20,000 bases of DNA, from IMG/VR virus record IMGVR_UViG_3300029288_000087; one strand, written 5' to 3'. Below the pieces are notes generated by a model, which did not search any database, was not told the origin of the DNA, and saw nothing but the letters and a program-made list of their open reading frames with translations. A program made the position numbers and the translations under genes. Shown here piece after piece: positions 2,159 through 13,804 of the stretch. The DNA comes from an uncultured virus (IMG/VR IMGVR_UViG_3300029288_000087). Its lineage: Duplodnaviria > Heunggongvirae > Uroviricota > Caudoviricetes. Position 1 is the stretch's first letter. Each line of letters starts with the position of its first letter.

Positions 2159-2729
2159 TGCTGCCAACAAGACTCCGGAGCCCGCTCCGTTCGTCTGCCC
2201 ATACCACAGGCCGTCTCCACCCTGGACATGGCGCGACACCGTAGGGGTGCTGCTCCTGATTGCCGCTGCGACCGTGCTCACCATCGGCATGTATCACGTC
2301 GAAAAGCTGAGCGAGCACTACTGGATCATGTCGGCCTACCTCACGAAGCCCATAACGCTGTACTCTTACCGTGGACATCGTGAGTGGGTAGATCGGGATC
2401 GGATCGAGAAGTCCGACGCGGACGACTACGGCCAAGCGTACAGGGAGGGGTACCACGACGGCAAGGGCATGTGCGTGGCCGCGTACAAGAGGACGAAGAG
2501 CCCAACTGCGCTCTGGGTCTCGACGGGTTGCATCGACGCCTGCGCTGCCATGCGCAAGGCGGGGGCTCACGACATGAGTGCACAGACGCCCGGACATGCC
2601 TGCGAGTTCTTCTGCGAGGCGGGCAACGAGCGGGGCTACGACGATCCGTGGCCGGTTGCGTGCTTCCAGCGGGCGAAGTCGCAGCAGGATGTCCACGACT
2701 GCTGGATCGGGGCGGAGAAGAAACAATGA
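2148..2729 (+). CDS. Hypothetical membrane protein with Cys-rich C-terminal domain
   Basis: TM segment VGVLLLIAAATVLTIGMY; several Cys downstream; ATGA overlap with next gene. Confidence 0.7.
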   Translation: MDDDAANKTPEPAPFVCPYHRPSPPWTWRDTVGVLLLIAAATVLTIGMYHVEKLSEHYWIMSAYLTKPITLYSYRGHREWVDRDRIEKSDADDYGQAYREGYHDGKGMCVAAYKRTKSPTALWVSTGCIDACAAMRKAGAHDMSAQTPGHACEFFCEAGNERGYDDPWPVACFQRAKSQQDVHDCWIGAEKKQ

Positions 2730-2962
2730 CCAGGATGGCTCACCACGAAGAGTGTGGCATCTGCCACAGCGACCACATGTGCGAGCACAGGCTTCCGAAA
2801 GTCGAACCTCGCCCTCCGAGCATCTGCCCCCTGTGCGGAGAGCCGATCAACCCGCTCGACGAGATCGAGACCGATCGGGACCGCCTGATGAGGGCAGCGC
2901 CCGGCTGCACCACCGATGGGTGGATCGCTCACAAGAGCTGTGTCACCAAGGCGGGCACGTGA
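2726..2962 (+). CDS. Small zinc-finger-like protein
   Basis: CGICHSDHMCEH, CPLCGEPI and HKSC motifs; overlaps at both ends. Confidence 0.7.
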   Translation: MTRMAHHEECGICHSDHMCEHRLPKVEPRPPSICPLCGEPINPLDEIETDRDRLMRAAPGCTTDGWIAHKSCVTKAGT

Positions 2963-3804
2963 CCACCCCCAAGACAACGTGCGGGACATGCGGCGGTGAC
3001 TACCCAGTCGGCTCGACATGTCCTAGCTGCGGTCCCCACAACCCCGGAGCGGCGCTGTTGGGCGCTCTCCGCGGGCACGGCAGTGGCTTGGCACCCGATC
3101 CGTTCGAGCAGGCCGAAGCGTGCCCGTACTGCGACATCAAGGACCAAGTGATCAAGGCTGCTGGCGAGCAGATCGAGGCTCTCGAACAGAAGCTCGCTGA
3201 CGCCGCTGCTGATCGCGACAGGAACGCATCGTCCGTCGAGACACTGATCCGCGAGATTGGCTACAACCGCGTGCTACCGTATGGAGATGTGGGCGCTGCC
3301 GTCGAGTACGCCCGCGGGCTGCACGCGAGGATCGCATCCGACGCAAGCGACAACGCCAGATTGTGCAATGCCCTCAACCGGGACAAGACCGGGCTGGCGC
3401 AGGCGCTCGTGGATGTCCTGACTGAAGCCAGGGGTCGTCGCTGGCTCGGGCCAGAAGGCGGGTGGGGCTCGTACGAGTGGCAGGAGCACACGACGGACAC
3501 GCTGCGCAAGGAGATCGAGTGGGCCCTGGACGCCATCGAGACGATCGCGAAGAAGGCGCTCGCCACGTCGGGCGCGCTCGCGACGGAGACGCTTCGGCTC
3601 ACAGCAGAAAAAGCCCGCGCGATGTGCAGAACGGCGGTAGACATACCCAGCCGCTACGGCATGATCGAAGGCGCGCACCATAAGCAGTGGGTCATCGACC
3701 AGATGCTTCGGAAGATGCTCGGAGAAGCGGGCTACGCTACTTGGGTAGCGGGGATGAACGCGGACCCCGACTTCGCACCGTGGGACACGGGGATCGCGCC
3801 ATGA
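2959..3804 (+). CDS. Multidomain hypothetical phage protein (N-terminal Zn ribbon, coiled coil, GAHHKQWVIDQM C-terminal domain)
   Basis: GTGA overlap start; CGTC/CPSC/CPYC motifs; C-terminus YGMIEGAHHKQWVIDQMLR...WDTGIAP resembles a recurrent phage domain of unknown function. Confidence 0.75.
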   Translation: MTTPKTTCGTCGGDYPVGSTCPSCGPHNPGAALLGALRGHGSGLAPDPFEQAEACPYCDIKDQVIKAAGEQIEALEQKLADAAADRDRNASSVETLIREIGYNRVLPYGDVGAAVEYARGLHARIASDASDNARLCNALNRDKTGLAQALVDVLTEARGRRWLGPEGGWGSYEWQEHTTDTLRKEIEWALDAIETIAKKALATSGALATETLRLTAEKARAMCRTAVDIPSRYGMIEGAHHKQWVIDQMLRKMLGEAGYATWVAGMNADPDFAPWDTGIAP

Positions 3805-5154: not shown

Positions 5155-5784
5155 ATGGATCTGGCCTCTATTGAGCAACTCGCAAATACCATCGCTTCCA
5201 TCCCTGATACGCGGCCCGACTGGATGAAAAACGTGTGCATGGGAAATGAGGGCTGGCTATATTACAGATTCTTCCACGAGTTCATTCAAAGGCATGGGCC
5301 AGCGCGTGTTGTAGATATTGGGACTCACATGGCAGGTTCTGCTGTACACCTCGCCTGCGGCAACCCGCAGGGCCACGTCTACACAATGGACCCGGACCCG
5401 AACTCAAAGAACTGCGTCGCGCTTCTTCCGGTGAAGAACATCACGGCGTTCACGGGTACTTCCATGGCTCTGGCGGATCAAATCCGCCGGTTCGGGCCGT
5501 TCGACATCGCTGTCATCGACGGCGAACACCACATCAATCACATGTACCCAGAATACGTGTGCTACCGAAGCATGGTGAAAGACGGAGGGCTCATCTTCTT
5601 CGACGACGTGAACTATGACCAGTTCCCCAGCATGCGTATTGCCTGGGATCTCATCCCGGACCCCAAAGCGCTGCTACCTACGCTGCACTTCTCTGGGTTC
5701 GGCGTCTGCAAGGTAGACCACAGCATCCACGCCCTGGAGCTTCGGGCCGCTCTGCGGCAGAGAGAGCGAAGAGCTACGGCTTGA
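5155..5784 (+). CDS. Class I SAM-dependent methyltransferase (Methyltransf_24-like)
   Basis: VVDIGTHMAGSA, FDIAVIDGEH and GGLIFFDD motifs; AAGGAG SD. Confidence 0.88.
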   Translation: MDLASIEQLANTIASIPDTRPDWMKNVCMGNEGWLYYRFFHEFIQRHGPARVVDIGTHMAGSAVHLACGNPQGHVYTMDPDPNSKNCVALLPVKNITAFTGTSMALADQIRRFGPFDIAVIDGEHHINHMYPEYVCYRSMVKDGGLIFFDDVNYDQFPSMRIAWDLIPDPKALLPTLHFSGFGVCKVDHSIHALELRAALRQRERRATA

Positions 5785-6262
5785 TCGCCTCGAAGAATGA
5801 GTCGAGACCTTCGATGCGGTTGTCCACGATGACGTAGGACTTCCTACCGTTCTCGATCATCCACTCCCCGAACAGCACCTTGTACGCGTCGTGCGAGAAG
5901 CGCCAGCAGTCGGTCGGATACGCATGGTACCCCCATGCCCAGGCGGCGCTGATGCACAGTAGCCCACTCGGGCGAAGCACGCGATCCATCTCAAGCACGA
6001 GCTTCCATGGCATAGAGACGTGTTCCAGGCTGTTCGCTGAAACCACTGCATCCACGCTTGCGTCGGCCAGCGGGATCTTGAATGGTTCCTTCTCGACGAT
6101 GTCTACGTTCGGACCTTTCTCGATGTCGAACCCGATGTACTTCGGGCCAAACAGCCCGCGCAGGTTCCCATTTACGTCGTAGGCTCCAACATCCAGGACC
6201 ACCGCATGCTTCGGCACCTTCTTCGCGAACTCCGCTAGTCTATTGTAGCTCTGTGCGTGCAT
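5774..6262 (-). CDS. SAM-dependent methyltransferase (Methyltransf_11-like)
   Basis: VLDVGAYDVNG, DIEKGPNVDIV, SVDAVVSANSLEHV, RVLRPSGLL, HAYPTDCWRF. Confidence 0.9.
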   Translation of the reverse strand: MHAQSYNRLAEFAKKVPKHAVVLDVGAYDVNGNLRGLFGPKYIGFDIEKGPNVDIVEKEPFKIPLADASVDAVVSANSLEHVSMPWKLVLEMDRVLRPSGLLCISAAWAWGYHAYPTDCWRFSHDAYKVLFGEWMIENGRKSYVIVDNRIEGLDSFFEAIKP

Positions 6263-7055
6263 TTTCGTTCTCCCGTTTCAAAAAACCAGTTGGGTTCCAT
6301 GTAACACAGAACCGCTCCCGATCCCTGTCGCTTGCAAACTTTTTGTTTTCGGCCAGAAATGCCGCGACCGCCTCATAGGGGCCAGGAGAATGGCCGACGT
6401 TCAACCCGTGATGGCAAATCGTATCTTCCACGATCAGATAGCTGCCGCACGTTACCACGTCTCCATAGGTTCGCATCACGCTCAGCGTGTGTTCATACGT
6501 GTGCGCCGTGTCCTCAATCACGAGAACCGTCTCCGCTCCGCTGCACAGTTTCTTCACATCTCCGAATCTCGCGATGACATCCCCCTGCACCAGCTTGATT
6601 CTAGGGTGCCTCGGAACCGTCTCGTGCAGCATCGCGAAGCTCTTGTCCACACCTACGACGAAGCCCTTCCCGATGCTCTGGCACGTGTCAGCAAGCCACA
6701 GTGTTGCCCCGCCCCTGGATACACCCAGCTCGACGACAGCGTTTGGCCGAAGCTCGTACATGATCTCTCGATACGTCCACAAGTCGAACGGGTTCTTGAG
6801 TGCCACGACTCCATTGTACGCCATGAGACCGGACATCAGGCGCTCCTGGACTTTAGCGAGAGCGTCGCGTACCTTCGCCTTCTGCATCCCTCGCAGGAGC
6901 TTCAGCATATCCTTTGCGCACGCCATGACCCACATGTCAGCAGGCACGCCCACCGACTTCAGTGGCCACGGATGGCGCGGTGTGAACAACTCTGCCTCGA
7001 CAATCGGTAAAATCTCCGACACTGGCCTATCAAGCATGGCTTCCATGATTGGCAT
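6240..7055 (-). CDS. CmcI (cephalosporin hydroxylase / rhamnosyl O-methyltransferase) family methyltransferase
   Basis: KNPFDLWTYREIMYELRPNAVVELGVSRGG, VLVIEDTAHTYEH, GSYLIVEDT, GPYEAV, TWNPTGFLKR. Confidence 0.9.
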   Translation of the reverse strand: MPIMEAMLDRPVSEILPIVEAELFTPRHPWPLKSVGVPADMWVMACAKDMLKLLRGMQKAKVRDALAKVQERLMSGLMAYNGVVALKNPFDLWTYREIMYELRPNAVVELGVSRGGATLWLADTCQSIGKGFVVGVDKSFAMLHETVPRHPRIKLVQGDVIARFGDVKKLCSGAETVLVIEDTAHTYEHTLSVMRTYGDVVTCGSYLIVEDTICHHGLNVGHSPGPYEAVAAFLAENKKFASDRDRERFCVTWNPTGFLKRENENARTELQ

Positions 7056-7058
7056 GAT

Positions 7059-7796
7059 TCAACCCTTGAAATACGGGCTCGCTGGCGGAGCCCTGTGCCC
7101 ATACGCGGAGACCTCCCCGATGTGCTTGCACATGCAGGGGTGAGCGTTGAAGATTGGGATCTTGTGCAGCGCACAGGCTCGGTTGATGCCCATATCCGCG
7201 TACCAGTCCAGTGCCCCGCCATAGACCGGCAACAGCATCTTCTCGCTAATCGTCATGGCAAATTGCGACGCGACAGCAGCAGGCATGCACAGACCATGGT
7301 TGGCGTAAAAAGCAGTCGGGTACTTCCACTTCATCAGGAGATCCTCTCCGAAGCCGGTGGCATCCACCCGATCAAAGTCTTCCAGTCGATACAAGTGATG
7401 CAGAGTTATCATCCACTTGTCGCACTTGCCCGACACGACGCGCACAAGCGCTTCCACTCGCTTGTACCAATCGCGAGCCAAAATCACGTCATCCTCGAAT
7501 ACGCACCCTGGCTCACCTGTCTCCGCGATCCACTTCAGAGCCCGCACCAAATTCAGGGTCAGCCTGATGCCTCCATGCGTCGCGTCCGCGAGTTCGATTG
7601 GAGGGGTCACGTGGACATACGTGCCTTCCGGGACTGATGGTACGATATGATGATCGACGAATACCCCCATGTTCGTGGCCTGAAAAGTCGGATCTTTCTC
7701 GACCATCTCGCGCAGCGTCTGCTCGCAATATCCATACCCGATCCCTATTCTAGGAGCCGTGGTGGTTGCTGCGCGCATCATGATCTTTGTCTCCAC
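7059..7796 (-). CDS. Putative GT-A fold glycosyltransferase (GT25/GT54-like)
   Basis: N-terminal TTAPR...Y...TL, VFEDDVIL metal-binding motif, C-terminal HPCMCKHIG; operon context. Confidence 0.65.
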   Translation of the reverse strand: METKIMMRAATTTAPRIGIGYGYCEQTLREMVEKDPTFQATNMGVFVDHHIVPSVPEGTYVHVTPPIELADATHGGIRLTLNLVRALKWIAETGEPGCVFEDDVILARDWYKRVEALVRVVSGKCDKWMITLHHLYRLEDFDRVDATGFGEDLLMKWKYPTAFYANHGLCMPAAVASQFAMTISEKMLLPVYGGALDWYADMGINRACALHKIPIFNAHPCMCKHIGEVSAYGHRAPPASPYFKG

Positions 7797-7808
7797 GGAT
7801 ACCGCCTG

Positions 7809-8663
7809 TTACCACACGGTTTGCACCATCGGGTGATGTAGTAGATGTTCTCGGCTCAGTGCCTGCTCGACGTATTCTCGATACCTACCCACGTCGCGAC
7901 TGACGCGCCGACCGAACCGCTTTGGCCCATCCATGTGCAGAATCACCTTCCCAGGCGTGTCTGACATCAGGCTGTACTTTTCCGGATCCAGTTGCACAGG
8001 AGAAATGTCCGCTTCCATCGCTGCGCAGTTCATCGGAGTATTCTCAGGAAGGATCGCCAAGGCTCGCGCGTTCGGATGCGCAATACCGAACTCCGACGTG
8101 CGCTGAAACATCTGGATCACCTTCTCACACCGTCGCACAAACAAGAATGCTGCCCCGAAGTACGGCCTCCTGTTCAGTGCGTCCTGTTCTGGCAAGTTGA
8201 AGAAACTCTTCAATTCTGCACCCGAATCGGGGCAGATGTCCAGACGACTGCCAAGATCGCTTCTGCATCTGGCATGGTCGTGCCTAAGCTCTACCGTGCT
8301 TGAATGCACCTGCATGTACGAGGAGTTGTCCACTACGGCTGCCAGCCCGGTCCTGTGAGACTCCTTGATCCCTTCATGCAGCGAAGCAAGTGGCACGGTG
8401 TCCGCGTCGAGAAGCACGACCTCCCTGTCGCCTGCGCAGCTGAGTAGGTGCAACCACGATCTGGGCTTGCGAATGTAGTGCTGCGGATACTCGTCATCCA
8501 CAGGGCGGTGCTCTATCCAGTCCGGGAAGTCTCTGGCATACTTCTGGGGGCTGTAGACGATCACCGTCATATCAGGATCTGCGCGTCTCGCGCAGCATGC
8601 GCTTATCAGCGCCATGCCGACGTAGATCCCGTCCGCGTAGTACGCAAGGATCGTCTGGCTCAC
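7809..8663 (-). CDS. GT8-like glycosyltransferase
   Basis: GTG 8663 overlaps upstream stop; ILAYYADGIYVGMALIS N-terminus, VVLLDADT DxD motif, LAAVVD, ILHMDGPK. Confidence 0.75.
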   Translation of the reverse strand: MSQTILAYYADGIYVGMALISACCARRADPDMTVIVYSPQKYARDFPDWIEHRPVDDEYPQHYIRKPRSWLHLLSCAGDREVVLLDADTVPLASLHEGIKESHRTGLAAVVDNSSYMQVHSSTVELRHDHARCRSDLGSRLDICPDSGAELKSFFNLPEQDALNRRPYFGAAFLFVRRCEKVIQMFQRTSEFGIAHPNARALAILPENTPMNCAAMEADISPVQLDPEKYSLMSDTPGKVILHMDGPKRFGRRVSRDVGRYREYVEQALSREHLLHHPMVQTVW

Positions 8664-9466
8664 GCGACGCTCCGCTTCTTGAACACCGTGGTCGCGCACC
8701 CCAGCCTCTGCAACTTCTCCACAGATACTGGGCACGCGACGCCGCTGGAGCTTATCTCCCAAGCGTCGTACCCGCCCTCCATCATCTCAACACCGAACCT
8801 CTTCGCGTAGTGAGGACGCCAGCTGCACACAAAGATCGGAGGCTTCTCTGTGGATAGGATACCGGAAGCTCCCGACACGACCTCTGGTTCAGCCCCGCAC
8901 GCGCCGCAGAATATCACGTCTGGAACACTCGACAGGGCGAAGTCAAGATTCGCCACTTTCACGTCCAGCGACATCCAGTCGTCAGCGCCGCAAACGATAG
9001 ACCCTTCCATGGGAGAACGGGGCGGGCACCTGAGATCGTGACTTCCGCAGACATCGCTCACCGCGCACTCGTGTACGTCAGTGACGGCAGAGAGCCCGTT
9101 GAGCCTCAGATTATCCATCAGCAAGGGAACCAGCTGTGGGTTCGGCTCGAACGCGTCCACGTGTCCGTTCTCACCAACGAGATGAGCGAACAGCATAGTG
9201 TAGTAGCCAACGTTCGCGCCGATTTCCACGACGTGCATCCCGCGACGGATGATCCCGCACATGGCAGCTGTTATCCAGCTTTCCCAGTAGCCATCGAACA
9301 CGACATGTGGCGCAAACGTCGTGTCCGAAGAGAGCACGAACGTCTTGAACATCCCAAGCGTGTGGCAAAGCACTCTATCCGGCGGGAATGAAACCGCCCT
9401 AACTTTGCTGCGAGAGAACTCTTCAATCTTCTGAGGAGTGGGGTTGCTCAGGTAAATCGACATCAC
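8660..9466 (-). CDS. FkbM-family methyltransferase (atypical C-terminal motif)
   Basis: GYWES, VVEIGANVGYYT, GHVDAFEPNP. Start GTG 9466 or ATG 9463. Confidence 0.88.
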   Translation of the reverse strand: MMSIYLSNPTPQKIEEFSRSKVRAVSFPPDRVLCHTLGMFKTFVLSSDTTFAPHVVFDGYWESWITAAMCGIIRRGMHVVEIGANVGYYTMLFAHLVGENGHVDAFEPNPQLVPLLMDNLRLNGLSAVTDVHECAVSDVCGSHDLRCPPRSPMEGSIVCGADDWMSLDVKVANLDFALSSVPDVIFCGACGAEPEVVSGASGILSTEKPPIFVCSWRPHYAKRFGVEMMEGGYDAWEISSSGVACPVSVEKLQRLGCATTVFKKRSVA

Positions 9467-10254
9467 TTCCCCGCATTCGTCAGTGTGTCGTTGTACTCTT
9501 TCGCAGCGCGCAGAACGCTCATGTCCACCCCAACACTAGCGGCGGCAACGAGCATAGCGTTCGTATCCTTCGGCAGGCATTTCCCACCGAACCCCCTATA
9601 CCCCTTGTGGAACACGTCCAAGTGCGTCGGCCCACACATCGGGTCCACTTCCGCCGCTCGACGTATATCCTCGTACTGTGCCCCAATCGCTTGCGACATG
9701 TCGTACATCTGGTTGGCGAACGACACCTTCACCGCGTACCAGCAGTTGGCGAAATACTTGACGAGTTCTGCCTCTGTGCTTTTCATCAGCAAGACGAACC
9801 CGGCTGGCGGCAGTAGCGACAACACCCGATGAAGAACTTGAGCGTCTCTGCTGCCCGCAAACCCCACAACGTGGCGCGCGGGGTGTAGAAAGTCGTCCAC
9901 TGCTGTTGCGTCGGACAAGAACTCTGGCATGAATAGGATCGCCAAGGTAGGATGCTTGGCTTGTAGCGCCGCGGTAGTCCCCGGGGCCACGGTTGAGCGA
10001 ATGACGACGATGATGCCCTCGCGAGCGGACAGCTTGCGCACAGCATCTTCGACAGCCGACACATCGCATGCTCCATCGGCGCGTTCAGGAGTCGGCACGC
10101 ACACGAATGCGACTTGACAATCGGCAACCGCATCCCAGTCGTTGTAGCCCTTCGCCGGATCGTAGACGGACAGCTCGCATCTGCTCGCGAGCCACTCTGC
10201 CATCGCGGCCCCTACCGTGCCGTGCCCAATGACCGCTACACGCTCTGCGCTCAC
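9463..10254 (-). CDS. ugd: UDP-glucose/GDP-mannose 6-dehydrogenase family protein, short form
   Basis: VIGHGTVG Rossmann motif, FVCVPTP, IRSTVAPGTT, PEFL, AELVKYFAN, GFGGKCLPKD (catalytic Cys). Confidence 0.92.
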   Translation of the reverse strand: MSAERVAVIGHGTVGAAMAEWLASRCELSVYDPAKGYNDWDAVADCQVAFVCVPTPERADGACDVSAVEDAVRKLSAREGIIVVIRSTVAPGTTAALQAKHPTLAILFMPEFLSDATAVDDFLHPARHVVGFAGSRDAQVLHRVLSLLPPAGFVLLMKSTEAELVKYFANCWYAVKVSFANQMYDMSQAIGAQYEDIRRAAEVDPMCGPTHLDVFHKGYRGFGGKCLPKDTNAMLVAAASVGVDMSVLRAAKEYNDTLTNAGK

Positions 10255-10808
10255 GCCTGCCCCTCCGCCGCTGCCTCCGCGGGGGCCATCTGCACGAACG
10301 GCGCGGTCACCTGATACTTCGCAAACTTCTTGGACCCGATCTGCTCCACCTGCTTGCTCTCCCGAAGCTCCCGCATCGCGCGCTTCACCTGCGAGATCGA
10401 CCAGTCGAACTGTGTGGCGAGCGAGCCATGGATCTCCGCCAGCGCGACCGGCTCCGCGAACCCACTCAGGTAGCTCAGGATCTCGCGCTTCACGTCCTGC
10501 ATCGGCGCAGCCTTGGACTTGCTCACGATGACCTTGCTCTTGCCGATCACCTTCTTGGCCCGCTGCATGAGCCCAGAACGCTTCTTCTGCACCTTACCCA
10601 TCGGCTTACCGTCCCGGGCCACCTTGCGCGCCCCGCCCCGGCGATCCCCTCCCGCGTCCAGGTACATCTCGTGCAGGAACTGCTTGTGCGCCTCGCAGTG
10701 CGCCTCCGCGAGCTTGTCCGTGATCTCTTTCGAGTAGAGCGGCCTGAGCGTCGCAAAAAACAAGTCGTAGAGCGACGAACGCGCCTTCTCGATCTTCTTT
10801 TGGGACAT
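10251..10808 (-). CDS. Basic DNA-binding protein with C-terminal winged helix-turn-helix
   Basis: KREILSYL...VALAEI...SISQVKRAMRELRESKQVEQIGSKKFAKYQV is a wHTH plus wing pattern; Lys/Arg-rich linker. Confidence 0.7.
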   Translation of the reverse strand: MSQKKIEKARSSLYDLFFATLRPLYSKEITDKLAEAHCEAHKQFLHEMYLDAGGDRRGGARKVARDGKPMGKVQKKRSGLMQRAKKVIGKSKVIVSKSKAAPMQDVKREILSYLSGFAEPVALAEIHGSLATQFDWSISQVKRAMRELRESKQVEQIGSKKFAKYQVTAPFVQMAPAEAAAEGQA

Positions 10809-10816
10809 GCGAAGAA

Positions 10817-10845
10817 TGATTAGCCGAACAACAAGAATTTGTCAA
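10817..10845 (-). promoter_or_regulatory. Putative sigma70 promoter of the wHTH-glycosylation operon (leaderless)
   Basis: Perfect TTGACA (10845-10840), 17 bp, TAATCA (10822-10817), then 8 nt to ATG 10808; no SD. Confidence 0.6.
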
Positions 10846-11249
10846 CGCGCCGTCATCGCACGATAGGCGAGGAAGCCAAGGATCGCTGCGATGACCACGA
10901 CGGCTGCGCGTGGCGAGGAGGCCACGGATGCTTGGATCACAGGGGGTTGCGTGATGACGATCTCGGACTCCGTTTCGTCAGGCGGCGTCTCTTCGTCTGG
11001 GACTTCCGGCGAAAGGGACGCGTACAAGTTCGATAGGGCCTGCTCGATGGCCGAAGCGTAGTACCCGTCGATCTGAGGCTCGTCCCCGATGATGATGAGC
11101 GGCACCTGCTTGATGGCCGAGTCCTCGCCCGCGTCGTGAACGTTGACCGTGACGCCGTGGGAGGCCGGGTCCGACGCCATGATCTGCGCCTTCGCTTTTT
11201 CGCAATGCTCGCAATACGGTCGCGTAAAGATGTCGATCTGGGTTCTCAC
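10842..11249 (-). CDS. Glutaredoxin-like thiol-disulfide oxidoreductase with C-terminal membrane anchor
   Basis: IDIFTRPYCEHCEKAK (CxxC), QVPLIIIG (cis-Pro loop), acidic/Pro linker, TM AAVVVIAAILGFLAY. GTG 11249 overlaps the reconstructed ancestral SLT stop. Confidence 0.8.
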   Translation of the reverse strand: MRTQIDIFTRPYCEHCEKAKAQIMASDPASHGVTVNVHDAGEDSAIKQVPLIIIGDEPQIDGYYASAIEQALSNLYASLSPEVPDEETPPDETESEIVITQPPVIQASVASSPRAAVVVIAAILGFLAYRAMTAR

Positions 11250-11262
11250 GCGTGCACCGCCC

Positions 11263-11375
11263 GGAGGATCTTCGGGGTGAGCCCGATCATTTTTCGCTAC
11301 CAGACGCTGCCGGTGCAACATCTAATGCCGATGCATCCTTCAGGTTACCCCGAAGGACGGGTTGATCTCCCAAAG
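11263..11375 (-). ncRNA. Predicted TnpB omegaRNA (scaffold ~11375-11283 plus ~20 nt flank-derived guide)
   Basis: Overlaps tnpB 3' end/right end; GGG-AGAUCAA-CCC hairpin whose loop can pair with terminal UGAUC; GUCCUUCGGG-GUAA-CCUGAAGGAU GNRA hairpin. 5' boundary is a guess. Confidence 0.6.
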
Positions 11376-12501
11376 CTCGCAGGAAGATCCCGCGAGCGCC
11401 ATTGTAGTCTCGATCCATCGAGAGTCCCGTCTTCGCCGAGCGCACCACCTTCGAGCCGCCGAGCTTGGCGTTCACTTCACCCGTCCACGATACCGTCTTG
11501 CTCGTCCAAGCCTCGTTCTGATCGAGCACGAGCTTGCCGTACTCGAATGCCTTGTGCTTCAGAAACATCCTGAAACGGTAGTGGGCAAACGTCAGCATCG
11601 AACGCACCGACTTCGCCCGGAGCTTACGCGCACCTCGTTGCACCATCTCCTGCGTCTCGAACGGAGGCAGGATGATCACGTCGAAGCTCTTCACTAGAAA
11701 TGCCGCCACCTTGTGATGCAGCTCGTCCACGAGGTTGTGGAGCCTGCTCTGCATGTTCAGAATCGCGCGGCGCAAGTTCCGTTTTCGGAAGCGCTGCGTC
11801 TCCAGCTTGCGCCTGGAGATCAGATCGTCGATGTGCGCGCATAGCCGCTGAATCTGTCCAAAGTCACCGTCTCCGAGCTTGCCACAACCTGTCTCGGCGT
11901 AGAACGTTTGGAAGGATCGCACCCCGGGATCGAGAGCAACGACGCGCCCTTGGTTTTCGGCTGCGCATCGCTTCTGCTGTACGGGAACGATCAGAAACCA
12001 ACGCCCTCTTGCACGTACCAACCGCAGATCACCGTGTCCCTTCGGCACCTCCTCGACCATTCGGATCTCGCCCTTGGAGAGAGTCGGGTATATTCCTCCA
12101 CGACGGAATGCACTCTTCGGAATGAAACATGACTGCACGGGTTGTTTCCTGGACCTGAAGCCCACCTCTTGAAACTCGCCCGTCTCCATGAACTTGCGCT
12201 TCGCCGCCGACACCGCCCTGCACGCGTCCCTCATTGCCACGGATCGGATCTGGTAGGGCGTCTCCTCGGACCATGGCGGCAACGCCTTGAGCAGGCCCGT
12301 CTTGATCTTCTTCCAGTTCGCCTTGGTGCCGGGCGTTCGGAGGAAGGCGACCGCTGCGTTGAACGCGACGCGCGAGGTCCCGAGCCATCGGCGGAAGACG
12401 CCTGCCTGCTGGTCAGTGGGGTAGATCCGGATCTTCTTTGATTTGAGCAGCGTATCGTCTGAGGCCGTGCATTCGGCAAGAGAAGACGTGAACGATGGCA
12501 A
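11287..12501 (-). CDS. tnpB: IS607-associated RNA-guided endonuclease TnpB (Fanzor2-like)
   Basis: KSKKIRIYP N-terminus, VALDPGVRSF (RuvC-I), NEAWTSKT, MDRDYNGARGI (RuvC-III). Start uncertain (TTG 12501, CTG 12450 or GTG 12567). Confidence 0.92.
   Translation of the reverse strand: MPSFTSSLAECTASDDTLLKSKKIRIYPTDQQAGVFRRWLGTSRVAFNAAVAFLRTPGTKANWKKIKTGLLKALPPWSEETPYQIRSVAMRDACRAVSAAKRKFMETGEFQEVGFRSRKQPVQSCFIPKSAFRRGGIYPTLSKGEIRMVEEVPKGHGDLRLVRARGRWFLIVPVQQKRCAAENQGRVVALDPGVRSFQTFYAETGCGKLGDGDFGQIQRLCAHIDDLISRRKLETQRFRKRNLRRAILNMQSRLHNLVDELHHKVAAFLVKSFDVIILPPFETQEMVQRGARKLRAKSVRSMLTFAHYRFRMFLKHKAFEYGKLVLDQNEAWTSKTVSWTGEVNAKLGGSKVVRSAKTGLSMDRDYNGARGIFLRALGDQPVLRGNLKDASALDVAPAASGSEK
11297..11307. 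repeat. IS607 right-end subterminal motif, inverted copy of 12987-12997
   Basis: CTACCAGACGC (11297-11307) is the exact reverse complement of GCGTCTGGTAG (12987-12997). Confidence 0.75.
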
Positions 12502-12985
12502 GAAGATCGTCGGAAAGCTCCCGCTCGGGGCTGTGTTCAGTCTGATTGAGAACCACGAGTTCTCCACCGTTATGTTCGAGAAGATGCCCGAGAAGTTCGA
12601 CACCAAAGCGGGCAAGGCGGTCCTTGTGGGCAACCACAACCGTGAGCTTTGCTCCGCGTGCCAGTCGGTCCAGTAGGGAGAGCAATCCTTTACGCTTGAA
12701 GTTGAGCCCACTCCCGATGTCTTTGACAATTTCTGCGTTCGGGAAGCGCTGTCGCATGTAGATGATCTGTCTTGCGAGGTCATCCTTCTGCTTGGGAGAG
12801 GAGACCCGGCAGTAGCAGACAATAGCTGGAGGCAGGCCGTCCTTGACGAAGGAATCGACATCGAGAAGCCGCTGGCCAGCAGCGTTGCGCACGTGTTTGA
12901 TGAGCCCTTCATCGGCGTACTTCCGGATCGTGTTCGGGCACATGCCAAGAATCTGGCAGGCCATCCGCAGTGGAACCAACTTCAT
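12413..12985 (-). CDS. tnpA: IS607-family serine transposase TnpA
   Basis: N-terminal MerR-like HTH (ACQILGMCPNTIRKYADEG), YCRVSSPKQKDDLARQ catalytic Ser motif, DIGSGLNFKRKG, HKDRLARFG. Confidence 0.96.
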   Translation of the reverse strand: MKLVPLRMACQILGMCPNTIRKYADEGLIKHVRNAAGQRLLDVDSFVKDGLPPAIVCYCRVSSPKQKDDLARQIIYMRQRFPNAEIVKDIGSGLNFKRKGLLSLLDRLARGAKLTVVVAHKDRLARFGVELLGHLLEHNGGELVVLNQTEHSPERELSDDLLAIVHVFSCRMHGLRRYAAQIKEDPDLPH

Positions 12986-12986
12986 G

Positions 12987-13019
12987 GCGTCTGGTAGAGA
13001 ACGGTAGCATCTCGTTAGC
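12987..13019. repeat. IS607 left-end array of imperfect repeats (probable TnpA binding sites)
   Basis: CTGGTAG (12991-12997), ACGGTAG (13001-13007), TCGTTAG (13012-13018) at 10-11 bp spacing. Confidence 0.6.
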
Positions 13020-13029
13020 TATTCGTCAA
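13001..13029 (-). promoter_or_regulatory. tnpA promoter at the IS left end
   Basis: TTGACG, 17 bp, TACCGT with TGn extension; overlaps the subterminal repeats, consistent with autorepression. Confidence 0.6.
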
Positions 13030-13761
13030 CCCCCAGTGGATGTCGGCGAGCATGTACCCCACGGCCCCGAGCACGAAGAAGATGACCGCGACCTGCATCG
13101 CCCCGCTCGCCCCAGCCTGCCGAGGCGCGGACAAGCCGAGGGCGACGAAGGTGTTGGCGGCGCGCACGAAGTTCGCCACGTAGTCGTGCTGGCCGTACAT
13201 GCCCAGGATGCCAGGGCCATCAGCCATGCCGGTGTCGTTGCAGGCGCACGTCTCTGCGGGCTTCCCGCAACCGTTGTACGCCTTCACCGCCGCGAGTACC
13301 GAGCCACCGAAGTTCTTCGTCATCTTCACGATGAGGTTGCCCGCGTCGATGATCTGCTGCTCCGGGTGCTCGTTGTAGAACTGCGGCTCGTGACCGTACA
13401 TCCGGCACGTCATCGGGATGAACTGCATCAGGCCGCACGCGCCAGCGTCGCTGCACACCGTGGGGTTGCCGCCCGATTCGATCTGCATGATGCCCACAAG
13501 CCAGGACGGCGGGATGCCGTTGATCTCGGCAGCGTTCTGGATGGCCGCGCCCCAGCGGCCCCAGACGTTTGTGGCCATCTTCTGAGCGCGCGCGCTTGCG
13601 ATGTCCCAGGAGGGGAACCCCTGGCCTTCGACCTCGATCCGCCCGTCCTCCCACAGCCGGTAGGGGACGCCACAGGGATTGAACCACGCGCTCGGCATGG
13701 CCCCATCATACACGCGGGGCGCTTGTCCGAAAAGCGCCCGAGGCTGTATGCTCTCGTCCAT
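13015..13761 (-). CDS. Lytic transglycosylase (SLT domain) with C-terminal TM; last codons replaced by IS607
   Basis: AAEINGIPPSWLVGIMQIESGGNP...GACGLMQF...AVKAYNG motifs; TM VAVIFFVLGAVGYML. Alternative start ATG 13698, 6 nt after TATGAT. Confidence 0.9.
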   Translation of the reverse strand: MDESIQPRALFGQAPRVYDGAMPSAWFNPCGVPYRLWEDGRIEVEGQGFPSWDIASARAQKMATNVWGRWGAAIQNAAEINGIPPSWLVGIMQIESGGNPTVCSDAGACGLMQFIPMTCRMYGHEPQFYNEHPEQQIIDAGNLIVKMTKNFGGSVLAAVKAYNGCGKPAETCACNDTGMADGPGILGMYGQHDYVANFVRAANTFVALGLSAPRQAGASGAMQVAVIFFVLGAVGYMLADIHWGLTNS

Positions 13762-13804
13762 GAAGATCGCCTTCTACGTCGGGTTGTGCGGAGGGTATGG
13801 GGCC

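Follow-up and report, generated by a model that had tools for sequence, protein, structure and literature searches.

The window analysed here, 20,000 nucleotides of DNA from an uncultured virus (IMG/VR record IMGVR_UViG_3300029288_000087), is the terminal 20 kb of contig C3 (134,037 bp), which belongs to an assembly of 3.57 Mb in 205 contigs. It contains an insertion sequence (IS) of the IS607 type, present once in that assembly, with the genes tnpA and tnpB. The segment 11397-11283 on the minus strand is, with high probability, the scaffold of the omegaRNA (obligate mobile element-guided activity RNA, also called right-end element RNA or reRNA) of this IS607-family TnpB, which would take its guide from the flanking DNA and cut the empty insertion site. 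By analogy with characterised enzymes, TnpB very probably cuts element-free copies of the host element, and homing against sibling elements is plausible. A first-pass annotation of the window had proposed that an omegaRNA scaffold for TnpB, with a pseudoknot next to the guide, lies almost wholly inside the tnpB open reading frame (ORF). This proposal is borne out by covariation among relatives and by a match to a covariance model built without the window. The tnpB stop codon UGA (11289-11287) belongs to the pseudoknot 3' strand.

In the proposed RNA, stem A would be followed by a small hairpin, then by a variable and a terminal stem-loop, the latter overlapping the putative TnpA-binding repeat, and finally by an A-rich linker, UGAUC and the GG end, and the loop of the small hairpin would pair with UGAUC to form the pseudoknot. 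The GGG-AGAUCAA-CCC hairpin (11371-11359), whose loop is complementary to UGAUC at 11289-11285, and the GUAA-capped hairpin (11358-11335) lie exactly where the first-pass annotation had placed them. It had missed two helices, a 10-bp stem (11397-11375) and a terminal hairpin of ~14 bp (11328-11296), and its estimate of 90-100 nt for the scaffold is replaced by ~115 nt (11397-11283). The 198-nt region ending at 11263 has a folding energy of -90.3 kcal/mol (z = -3.92), a stability that none of 200 dinucleotide shuffles attained. A further predicted hairpin at ~11424-11407 was rejected as part of the scaffold, as it is absent from the closest relative, L002 (an IMG/VR contig of 119,895 bp with an 82%-identical tnpB copy), and as 30 relatives show no conserved helix 5' of stem A. 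In the terminal hairpin, the window and L002 differ by five one-sided changes, all of which keep the pairing.

Relatives were taken from a genome collection, in which 528 of 603 pattern matches were confirmed and the best 80 kept, and from five additional IMG/VR loci. Those from the genome collection are ~47-58% identical, belong mainly to Cyanobacteriota, Dehalococcoidia, Latescibacterota and Caldilineaceae, and include several genomes with multiple copies. Scaffold ends were set with the RD-N-GARG codons as anchor. The right end was located in 80 loci, corresponding to 71 distinct sequences; three more loci yielded no right end, two being cut by the contig end and one having an insertion in stem A. 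L067, the element of which is identical to that of L064, was left out because the rule had misplaced its end, and the remaining 70 distinct sequences were aligned (alignment A2). Over the whole structure, 93.2% of the cells in A2 are paired, compared to 84.8% after shuffling (0 of 500 shuffles as high) and 34-57% when the partners are slid along each other. The pseudoknot, for which a covariation check had been suggested beforehand, has standard pairs in 98.3% of its cells across the 70 relatives, and three of its five pairs are changed on both sides. The combinations of loop and end include GAUCA/UGAUC, GAUAC/GUAUC, GACAC/GUGUC, GAUUC/GAAUC, GAUAU/AUAUC and GAUAA/UUAUC, and this covariation shows that the 5-nt complementarity between loop and element end is not due to chance. 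In stem A, six types of base pair are seen for pair 28-49, which joins the third positions of an Ala and an Arg codon, both synonymous sites. AT-rich relatives (36-45% GC) keep the same helices.

The rule first used to find the 3' end relied on complementarity. The search was therefore repeated with a motif rule that is blind to it (an A-rich run, NNNTC, then GG), which returned a site in 73 of 80 loci, the same site as the first rule in 72 of these 73. All five pseudoknot pairs form at 67 of the sites found by the blind rule and four of five at the other 6. The distance between the loop partner and the right end varies from 79 to 123 nt, while the loop stays at a fixed tnpB codon. RNAalifold applied to 30 relatives predicts no helix to be conserved over the 150 nt that precede stem A, which places the start of the conserved scaffold at 11397. 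Between the pseudoknot hairpin and the linker, the sequences form the variable and the terminal stem-loop, with a median z of -2.7 (z < -2 in 44 of 70 sequences, z > 0 in none). In L004, the ORF stops just past the pseudoknot hairpin, so that neither the hairpin that follows nor the 3' strand of the pseudoknot is coding there. Lastly, only 16 cyanobacterial copies, and not the window, went into a covariance model (R1). It matches 11283-11397 (-) over its full length (41.8 bits, E 2.3e-8), the sole match in the 3.57-Mb assembly. A side observation concerns the Oscillatoriales contig L051, in which a second full-length match to the scaffold model (1852-1949, 96 bits) precedes the scaffold of the element itself by ~1.65 kb and may be a tandem or orphan copy of the guide RNA.

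A putative guide was assigned from the flanks. Among 68 distinct insertion sites, the right flanks diverge immediately behind GG, and the empty allele described below fixes the same boundary. The guide would thus start at 11282, in agreement with the earlier reading of the flank directly behind the element end, GCUCACCCCGAAGAUCCUCC, as guide. Its 20-mer occurs nowhere else in the 3.57-Mb assembly, even with up to 2 mismatches. The four bases 5' of the guide match read GGGG (preceded by T) in the empty allele and TCGG at the occupied junction, and the C before GG is invariant in 70 of 70 sequences and doubles as a pseudoknot position. The G-rich motif noted earlier before the left end is found as T+GGGGG in the left flank, as opposed to TCGG at the element's own junction. 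This difference matches the rule seen in assayed relatives, where GGG or TGGG functions as transposon-adjacent motif (TAM) and CGG or TCGG does not, and GGGG is a predicted TAM on that basis. ISXfa1 uses GGG, not CGG, as TAM and ends in CGG (10.1101/2023.08.09.552727). The Clostridium botulinum IStron has TAM TGGG and scaffold end UCGG, with G at position -3 discriminating between them, and its donor joint is cleaved (PMC10690162). ApmFz2 uses TAM GGG and forms its pseudoknot with nucleotides -4 to 0 (PMC11832414), and the TAMs reported for the RAGATH-18 clade are AGGAG or GAGGG (PMC11061315).

A natural empty allele was obtained by searching the SLT protein, the product of the gene interrupted by the element, against a metagenome collection. 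The search yielded one contig, L101 (1032 bp), which aligns to window positions 13544-13030 at 96% identity and 11284-10765 at 93% identity with a 3-nt overlap. As L101 spans both flanks without an insert, it represents a natural IS-free allele. Its junction reads ...CATTGGGGGCTCACTCCGAAGATCC..., and relative to it the insert measures 1748 bp (11282-13029, with a shift of up to 3 positions possible in the G-run). The window was also compared with contigs from four public runs. In run X4, from a different study, a 151-nt contig has the same joint (11281 to 13030, 1748 bases skipped), and the same run contains a 93%-identical right end with another flank from 11283 on. Contigs of run X1, the probable source run, show the occupied form only. 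The IS-free siblings postulated from the occupied sequence do exist, in the form of L101 and the X4 contig. The X4 joint contig has two differences in 37 nt at the joint, the same number as L101.

In L101, the SLT gene is 13 codons longer and stops in a GTGA overlap with the GTG start of the next gene. The earlier placement of the target in the SLT gene holds for the empty allele, with the correction that the target falls in the last 13 codons, before the GTGA overlap. SLT homologues in the L002 genome likewise end shortly after the membrane helix. A fusion of SLT to the glutaredoxin-like ORF, suggested by a six-G empty site rebuilt from the window alone, was discarded since L101 has five Gs and its SLT stops at GTGA.

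The TnpB protein was evaluated by profiles, residues and structure. The Pfam families HTH_OrfB_IS605 (PF12323) and Cas12f1-like_TNB (PF07282) match above their cut-offs and OrfB_IS605 (PF01385) below; the NCBIfam family guided_TnpB (NF040570) matches with 120 bits (cut-off 100). The database gene call gives tnpB a length of 442 aa. D191, P192, G193, P279, E330 and D365 are invariant in 42 relatives, and D191, E330 and D365 would make up the catalytic Asp-Glu-Asp of RuvC. The canonical RuvC-II Glu position is occupied by P279, and E330 lies six residues before the zinc-finger position (NEAWTSKT). From the arrangement in Fanzor and pro-Fanzor proteins, we infer that E330 is the catalytic Glu. 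Among solved structures, the best match by sequence is the mimivirus Fanzor2 9b0l (E 9e-24; ISDra2 TnpB ~7e-4). By fold it is again 9b0l (Foldseek E 2e-16, TM (template modelling) score 0.66, mean predicted local distance difference test (pLDDT) of the model 76), followed by ISDra2 TnpB and, at rank 3, ISFba1 TnpB (8iaz). Among 8000 scored proteins, 2593 have E ≤ 1e-20, many of which are labelled TnpB or transposase by their source. The nearest relatives are ~50% identical and mainly cyanobacterial. ORFs of the clade in the fetched loci contain DPG in 84 of 84 cases and are without the first CxxC in 81 of 84.

The element shows the features of an IS607 transposon. The tnpA product is a serine-recombinase transposase with a MerR-like helix-turn-helix (HTH) (Pfam Resolvase 3e-17, with MerR and HTH_17 matches under their cut-offs; NCBIfam transpos_IS607 166 bits, cut-off 110). 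The tnpB gene lies downstream on the same strand and overlaps tnpA, which stops at 12413 where the tnpB frame is already open from further upstream. Terminal inverted repeats are absent, a GG core is present at both junctions and the empty site is scarless, with the caveat of one extra G. The left junction reads GG+TTGACG and the right one GATC+GG, with CACTGGGGG (13037-13029) directly before TTGACG, and multi-copy relatives have a left end GG+TTG... and a right end ...ATC+GG in common. Homology between the window and L002 starts at GGTTGACGAATAG (GGTTGACG) and stops directly after GATCGG, the flanks being unrelated. An 11-nt subterminal inverted repeat occurs at 12997-12987 in the left end and, as GCGTCTGGTAG, at 11307-11297 in the right end. 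The left end contains stop codons in all three frames (TGA 13028-13026, TAG 13021-13019, TAA 13017-15). With a stop in each frame, TTGACGAATAGCTAA terminates any interrupted gene within five codons. The interrupted upstream gene indeed uses a left-end stop in both the window and L002, in different frames, and the final codons and stop of the SLT gene in the window are contributed by the element.

It is predicted from characterised relatives that the RNA is transcribed and processed, which TAM is used, and that cleavage and homing take place. The mechanism would be as follows. The RNA would overlap the tnpB 3' end and the right end of the transposon, and the next 16-20 nt (11282 to ~11263) would function as guide. 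After excision by TnpA, or in a sibling that was never occupied, the left flank would lie directly 5' of the guide match and read GGGG, a TAM of the GGG type. An occupied copy would read UCGG at the TAM position and be spared. TnpB would cut the empty site, which would regain or newly acquire the element by recombining with an occupied copy.

This mechanism as such is already known, since IS607 TnpB, its pseudoknotted guide RNA and self-avoidance through GGG versus CGG have all been published. ISXfa1 of Xylella fastidiosa resembles the present locus in having a serine-recombinase tnpA followed by tnpB, an RNA that extends over the 3' end of tnpB as well as the right end, an apical loop that forms a pseudoknot with nucleotides beside the guide, a right end CGG and an insertion site GGG. 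The pseudoknot of the ISXfa1 reRNA was proven by compensatory mutation (Yoon et al., Nucleic Acids Research 2023; 10.1101/2023.08.09.552727). ISXfa1 differs by a typical active site and a zinc finger, where the present TnpB has DPG, a shifted Glu and no zinc-finger cysteines, and by a longer scaffold (144 nt, compared to ~115 nt here), in which ~130 nt separate the loop partner from the guide, compared to ~80-85 nt here. The pro-Fanzor IS607 TnpBs of Cyanobacteriota share the DPG in RuvC-I, the shifted Glu and P279 at the canonical Glu position. Their pattern is given as DPG, 120-160 residues, E, six residues, CxxC...CxxC...D (10.1101/2023.08.09.552727). The spacing in the window fits (136 residues from the DPG motif to E330 and six to the zinc-finger position), but with the cysteines missing the published pattern is not matched despite the correct spacing. 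The TnpB of the window is related to the pro-Fanzor clade and would work like its members, yet falls outside the published pattern.

The mimivirus Fanzor2 ApmFz2 (PDB 9B0L), the closest solved relative, has a GGG TAM, a guide-adjacent pseudoknot and a shifted Glu, and differs by an extra N-terminal domain and a scaffold of 205 nt (PMC11832414). The C. botulinum IStron shares the GG core, the scarless donor joint and the scaffold end ...UCGG, and its TAM is G-rich like the one predicted here (Zedaveinyte et al., PMC10690162). It contains a group I intron, for which, as for all of Rfam, 10500-13500 gave no match at E up to 1, and its TAM is TGGG whereas GGGG lies 5' of the empty-allele target here, with the T one position further out. 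TnpBs of the ISFba1/RAGATH-18 type of IS607 elements are similar in size (~390 aa) and RNA pseudoknots and in a G-rich TAM, as predicted here, with 8iaz as structural neighbour (Cell Research 2024; PMC11061315). Their scaffold measures 187 nt and their TAM is AGGAG or GAGGG (PMC11061315), and the RAGATH-18 model has no match in the same interval at the same threshold.

Several observations weigh against the assignment of 11397-11283 (-) as the scaffold of a cutting TnpB. No Rfam covariance model matches 10500-13500, even at E values as high as 1, so that the family membership of the scaffold depends on our own covariance model, and none of the RNA-type sequencing runs on record contains the stretch. 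The GUAA stem-loop has two U-U mismatches in L002, the closest relative. The model-fitted alignment A7 (48 hits) speaks for the helices, with both-sided changes in 22 of 29 pairs, and in 7 of 8 pairs of the helix homologous to the GUAA hairpin, but these counts are biased towards the model by construction; as the model puts a gap in the loop, A2 was used for the pseudoknot instead. In the protein, the zinc finger CxxC...CxxC expected between RuvC-II and RuvC-III is absent, with V337 and T340 at the first positions and no later cysteines. We found no assayed member of this zinc-finger-less clade in the literature, although the supplementary tables of Yoon et al. may already list the clade.

The remaining points concern the insertion site. 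The insert measures 1748 bp relative to the empty allele and not the 1747 bp predicted by the GG-core rule (ATC+GG ... GG+TTG), and the right junction of the window reads GGG (11282-11284) where relatives have GG. Due to this difference, the crossover cannot be placed inside the G-run, and the one-G excess could reflect either crossover slippage in the run or a homopolymer difference between lineages. L101 has T in place of C at guide position 7. By our own tally of 29 sites of relatives with defined boundaries, the left-end GG is preceded by A at 13, by G at 8, by C at 6 and by T at 2, and some shared As may be element sequence. Position -3 is a purine in 21 of 29, and the insertion sites accordingly show a purine bias only and not a uniform GGG, with 6 carrying the presumably refractory CGG. 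Such a bias agrees with the published view that TnpA is not strict in its choice of site, and that protection by TnpB is limited to copies inserted next to a TAM (10.1101/2023.08.09.552727).

Three other explanations were weighed. The RNA could be real and guide a TnpB that does not cut, a TldR-like binder that, for example, damps transcription into the glutaredoxin-like gene. TnpB-derived repressors are known (PMC10705468). The replacement of the four zinc-finger cysteines (TSKTVSWTGE...), shared as to the first CxxC by 81 of 84 clade members, and the low model confidence of the zinc-finger region (pLDDT 53-70, residues 331-390) speak for such a role. We nevertheless consider it improbable, as D191, E330 and D365 are invariant in the 42 relatives, recent multi-copy expansions have intact ORFs (in one genome, five copies with 100% identity) and the CGG versus GGG asymmetry of the junctions, which matters only if the empty site is attacked, is kept. 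Described TldRs have lost RuvC residues.

It is very improbable that the structure acts only as DNA, the repeats and hairpins being recognition or synapsis sites of TnpA and the match between loop and end an inverted DNA repeat. The terminal hairpin does overlap the 11-nt subterminal repeat with its inverted copy in the left end, TnpA direct repeats lie within the ISXfa1 reRNA stem-loop (Yoon et al., 10.1101/2023.08.09.552727) and the right terminus ...ATCGG must be read by TnpA too; an RNA role and a TnpA-DNA role of the terminal hairpin are not exclusive. However, the 5' partner of the pseudoknot lies in a conserved hairpin loop at a fixed tnpB codon, at a variable distance 79-123 nt upstream, and the 5-mer is not present in the left-end sequence. 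Stem A and the variable stem-loop covary without sequence conservation, unlike protein-binding sites, and an equivalent pseudoknot is proven for ISXfa1 and visible in the structures of ISDra2 and ApmFz2 (10.1101/2023.08.09.552727; PMC11832414). That the helices are a by-product of coding or chance folding in GC-rich DNA, as the location mostly inside the tnpB ORF and the 61% GC of the window could suggest, has a negligible probability and is effectively refuted by the controls. Covariation is found at synonymous third positions, AT-rich relatives keep the helices, the scaffold is partly non-coding in L004, the shuffle and slide controls never reach the observed value, and the 150 nt of coding sequence just upstream have no conserved helix.

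The reading as an omegaRNA scaffold can be extended to the host element as a whole, in a form that we put forward tentatively and regard as rather unlikely. The 134-kb contig would then be a multi-copy virus-like element that carries IS607 as an RNA-guided gene drive in mixed infections, cutting siblings at the end of SLT. RecT and SSB of the host element would copy the IS, possibly with flanking markers, into the cut siblings, and the occupied and empty alleles together with the C-to-T change at position 7 would be a snapshot of drive and resistance. The enzyme would be a zinc-finger-less prokaryotic cousin of Fanzor2 of ~380-400 aa with a scaffold of ~115 nt. 

In a 2026 review, homing directed at co-infecting phages or plasmids already has a category of its own, 'transposon non-restorative homing', for which the large, RecT-encoding, phage-like element would provide a setting with a defined guide, a target and a naturally mismatched target. 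The locus further adds an occupied and an empty allele, both found in nature, from a Fanzor2-like TnpB clade without zinc finger that is apparently unassayed, and a compact, well-delimited scaffold of ~115 nt for which 70 relatives show covariation. For the engineering of miniature genome editors, the small size of the protein and of the scaffold may be of interest. Coordinates of all features are listed in Table 1.

Table 1. Features of the IS607-type element, its probable guide RNA scaffold and the neighbouring genes in the window.
Feature	Position	Strand	Basis or remark
IS607-type element, including GG at both junctions	11283..13031	-	~1.75 kb, tnpA + tnpB
tnpA, IS607-type serine recombinase, 190 aa, N-terminal MerR-like HTH	12413..12985	-	Pfam, NCBIfam
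tnpB, 404 aa from TTG 12501 (start uncertain)	11287..12501	-	Pfam, NCBIfam, invariant residues, structure match
Left end: GG core, then TTGACGAATAGCTAA	12986..13031	-	comparison with L002
Left-flank T+GGGGG, predicted TAM side	13030..13035	-	empty allele
omegaRNA stem A, 10 bp, 3-nt loop, within ARGIFLRA codons	11375..11397	-	fold, covariation
Pseudoknot hairpin GGG-AGAUCAA-CCC = GGGAGAUCAACCC	11359..11371	-	sequence, covariation
Loop GAUCA, 5' strand of pseudoknot	11363..11367	-	complementary to UGAUC
Variable stem-loop GUCCUUCGGG-GUAA-CCUGAAGGAU	11335..11358	-	fold, covariation of homologous helix
Terminal stem-loop, ~14 bp, overlapping subterminal repeat GCGTCTGGTAG	11296..11328	-	fold, L002 comparison
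Pseudoknot 3' strand UGAUC, after A-rich linker	11285..11289	-	loop complementarity
GG core dinucleotide, right junction; with C11285 = CGG	11283..11284	-	family ends ATCGG
Predicted guide-encoding right flank GCUCACCCCGAAGAUCCUCC, after GAUCGG	11263..11282	-	flank position; length 16-20 nt inferred
Interrupted SLT lytic transglycosylase gene, C-terminal membrane helix	13015..13761	-	Pfam SLT 2.7e-17
Glutaredoxin/thioredoxin-like gene, downstream	10842..11252	-	Pfam Glutaredoxin 1e-4

Some relatives deviate from the common element anatomy. Copies L056, L057, L063, L072, L073 and L076 end in ATCAG and L058 in ATCTG instead of ATCGG, all in one Latescibacterota genome, which suggests a changed core dinucleotide in this lineage. 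The copies in L002 (2400-4260, 82%) and L003 (2350-4200, 53% identical) both lie directly upstream of a DnaQ-like exonuclease gene (DTETTGL motif) and represent two diverged copies at an equivalent site. Joining the flanks of either copy across one GG would restore an AGGAG-type ribosome-binding site a few bases before ATG, which indicates that the element family inserts in Shine-Dalgarno sequences too. In L002, tnpA (2513-3083) is decayed, the start codon being replaced by ATA and the frame shifted near codon 7-18, and tnpB and the scaffold are intact; the copy reads as a tnpB-only survivor. About 1 kb downstream of this element, a second, much larger TnpB/Cas12-like ORF (L002:5257-7209) encodes at least 651 aa (it is open at the locus end) with CxxC...CxxC close to the C-terminus. 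A TnpB of ~37% identity is found in cultured phages, namely twenty Vibrio phages (~133-140 kb; OZ195714 and relatives) and one Microcoleus phage (OR578706), annotated merely as 'transposase' or 'hypothetical protein'.

Contig C3 consists mostly of ORFans and encodes RecT, SSB, an archaeo-eukaryotic (AEP) primase, helicases, a DNA methyltransferase, DUF2786/DUF7168 and Kyano_Gp96 (a Kyanoviridae Gp96-like domain). Profile scans with PHROGs (53, then 20 ORFs) and Pfam (88 ORFs) found no capsid, terminase, portal or conjugation family on C3, and the TerL_ATPase and HK97-capsid families match other contigs of the assembly only. No tRNA was present in the first 114 kb of C3, the part that was scanned, and no terminal repeat on the contig. 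Two large C3 ORFans and a megablast query of 10800-13800 had no match in phage records, nor did a pattern search with the SLT protein in IMG/VR. C3 is best described as a phage-like mobile element, a candidate virus. The L002 genome was considered as a sibling of C3 and rejected. A search for two C3 ORFans found no homologue in it, and its SLT paralogues are ~30-38% identical; it has the IS in common with C3, but not the backbone.

Beside the element, a sugar-modification gene cluster occupies 5155-10254 (-) of the window and includes two O-methyltransferases of the CmcI type, further methyltransferases and a UDP-glucose/GDP-mannose dehydrogenase that looks truncated at 263 aa. Elsewhere on the contig, a 1301-aa ORF (C3:68429-72334) has a tyrosine-recombinase (Phage_integrase) domain at residues ~300-515 as its only recognised domain.

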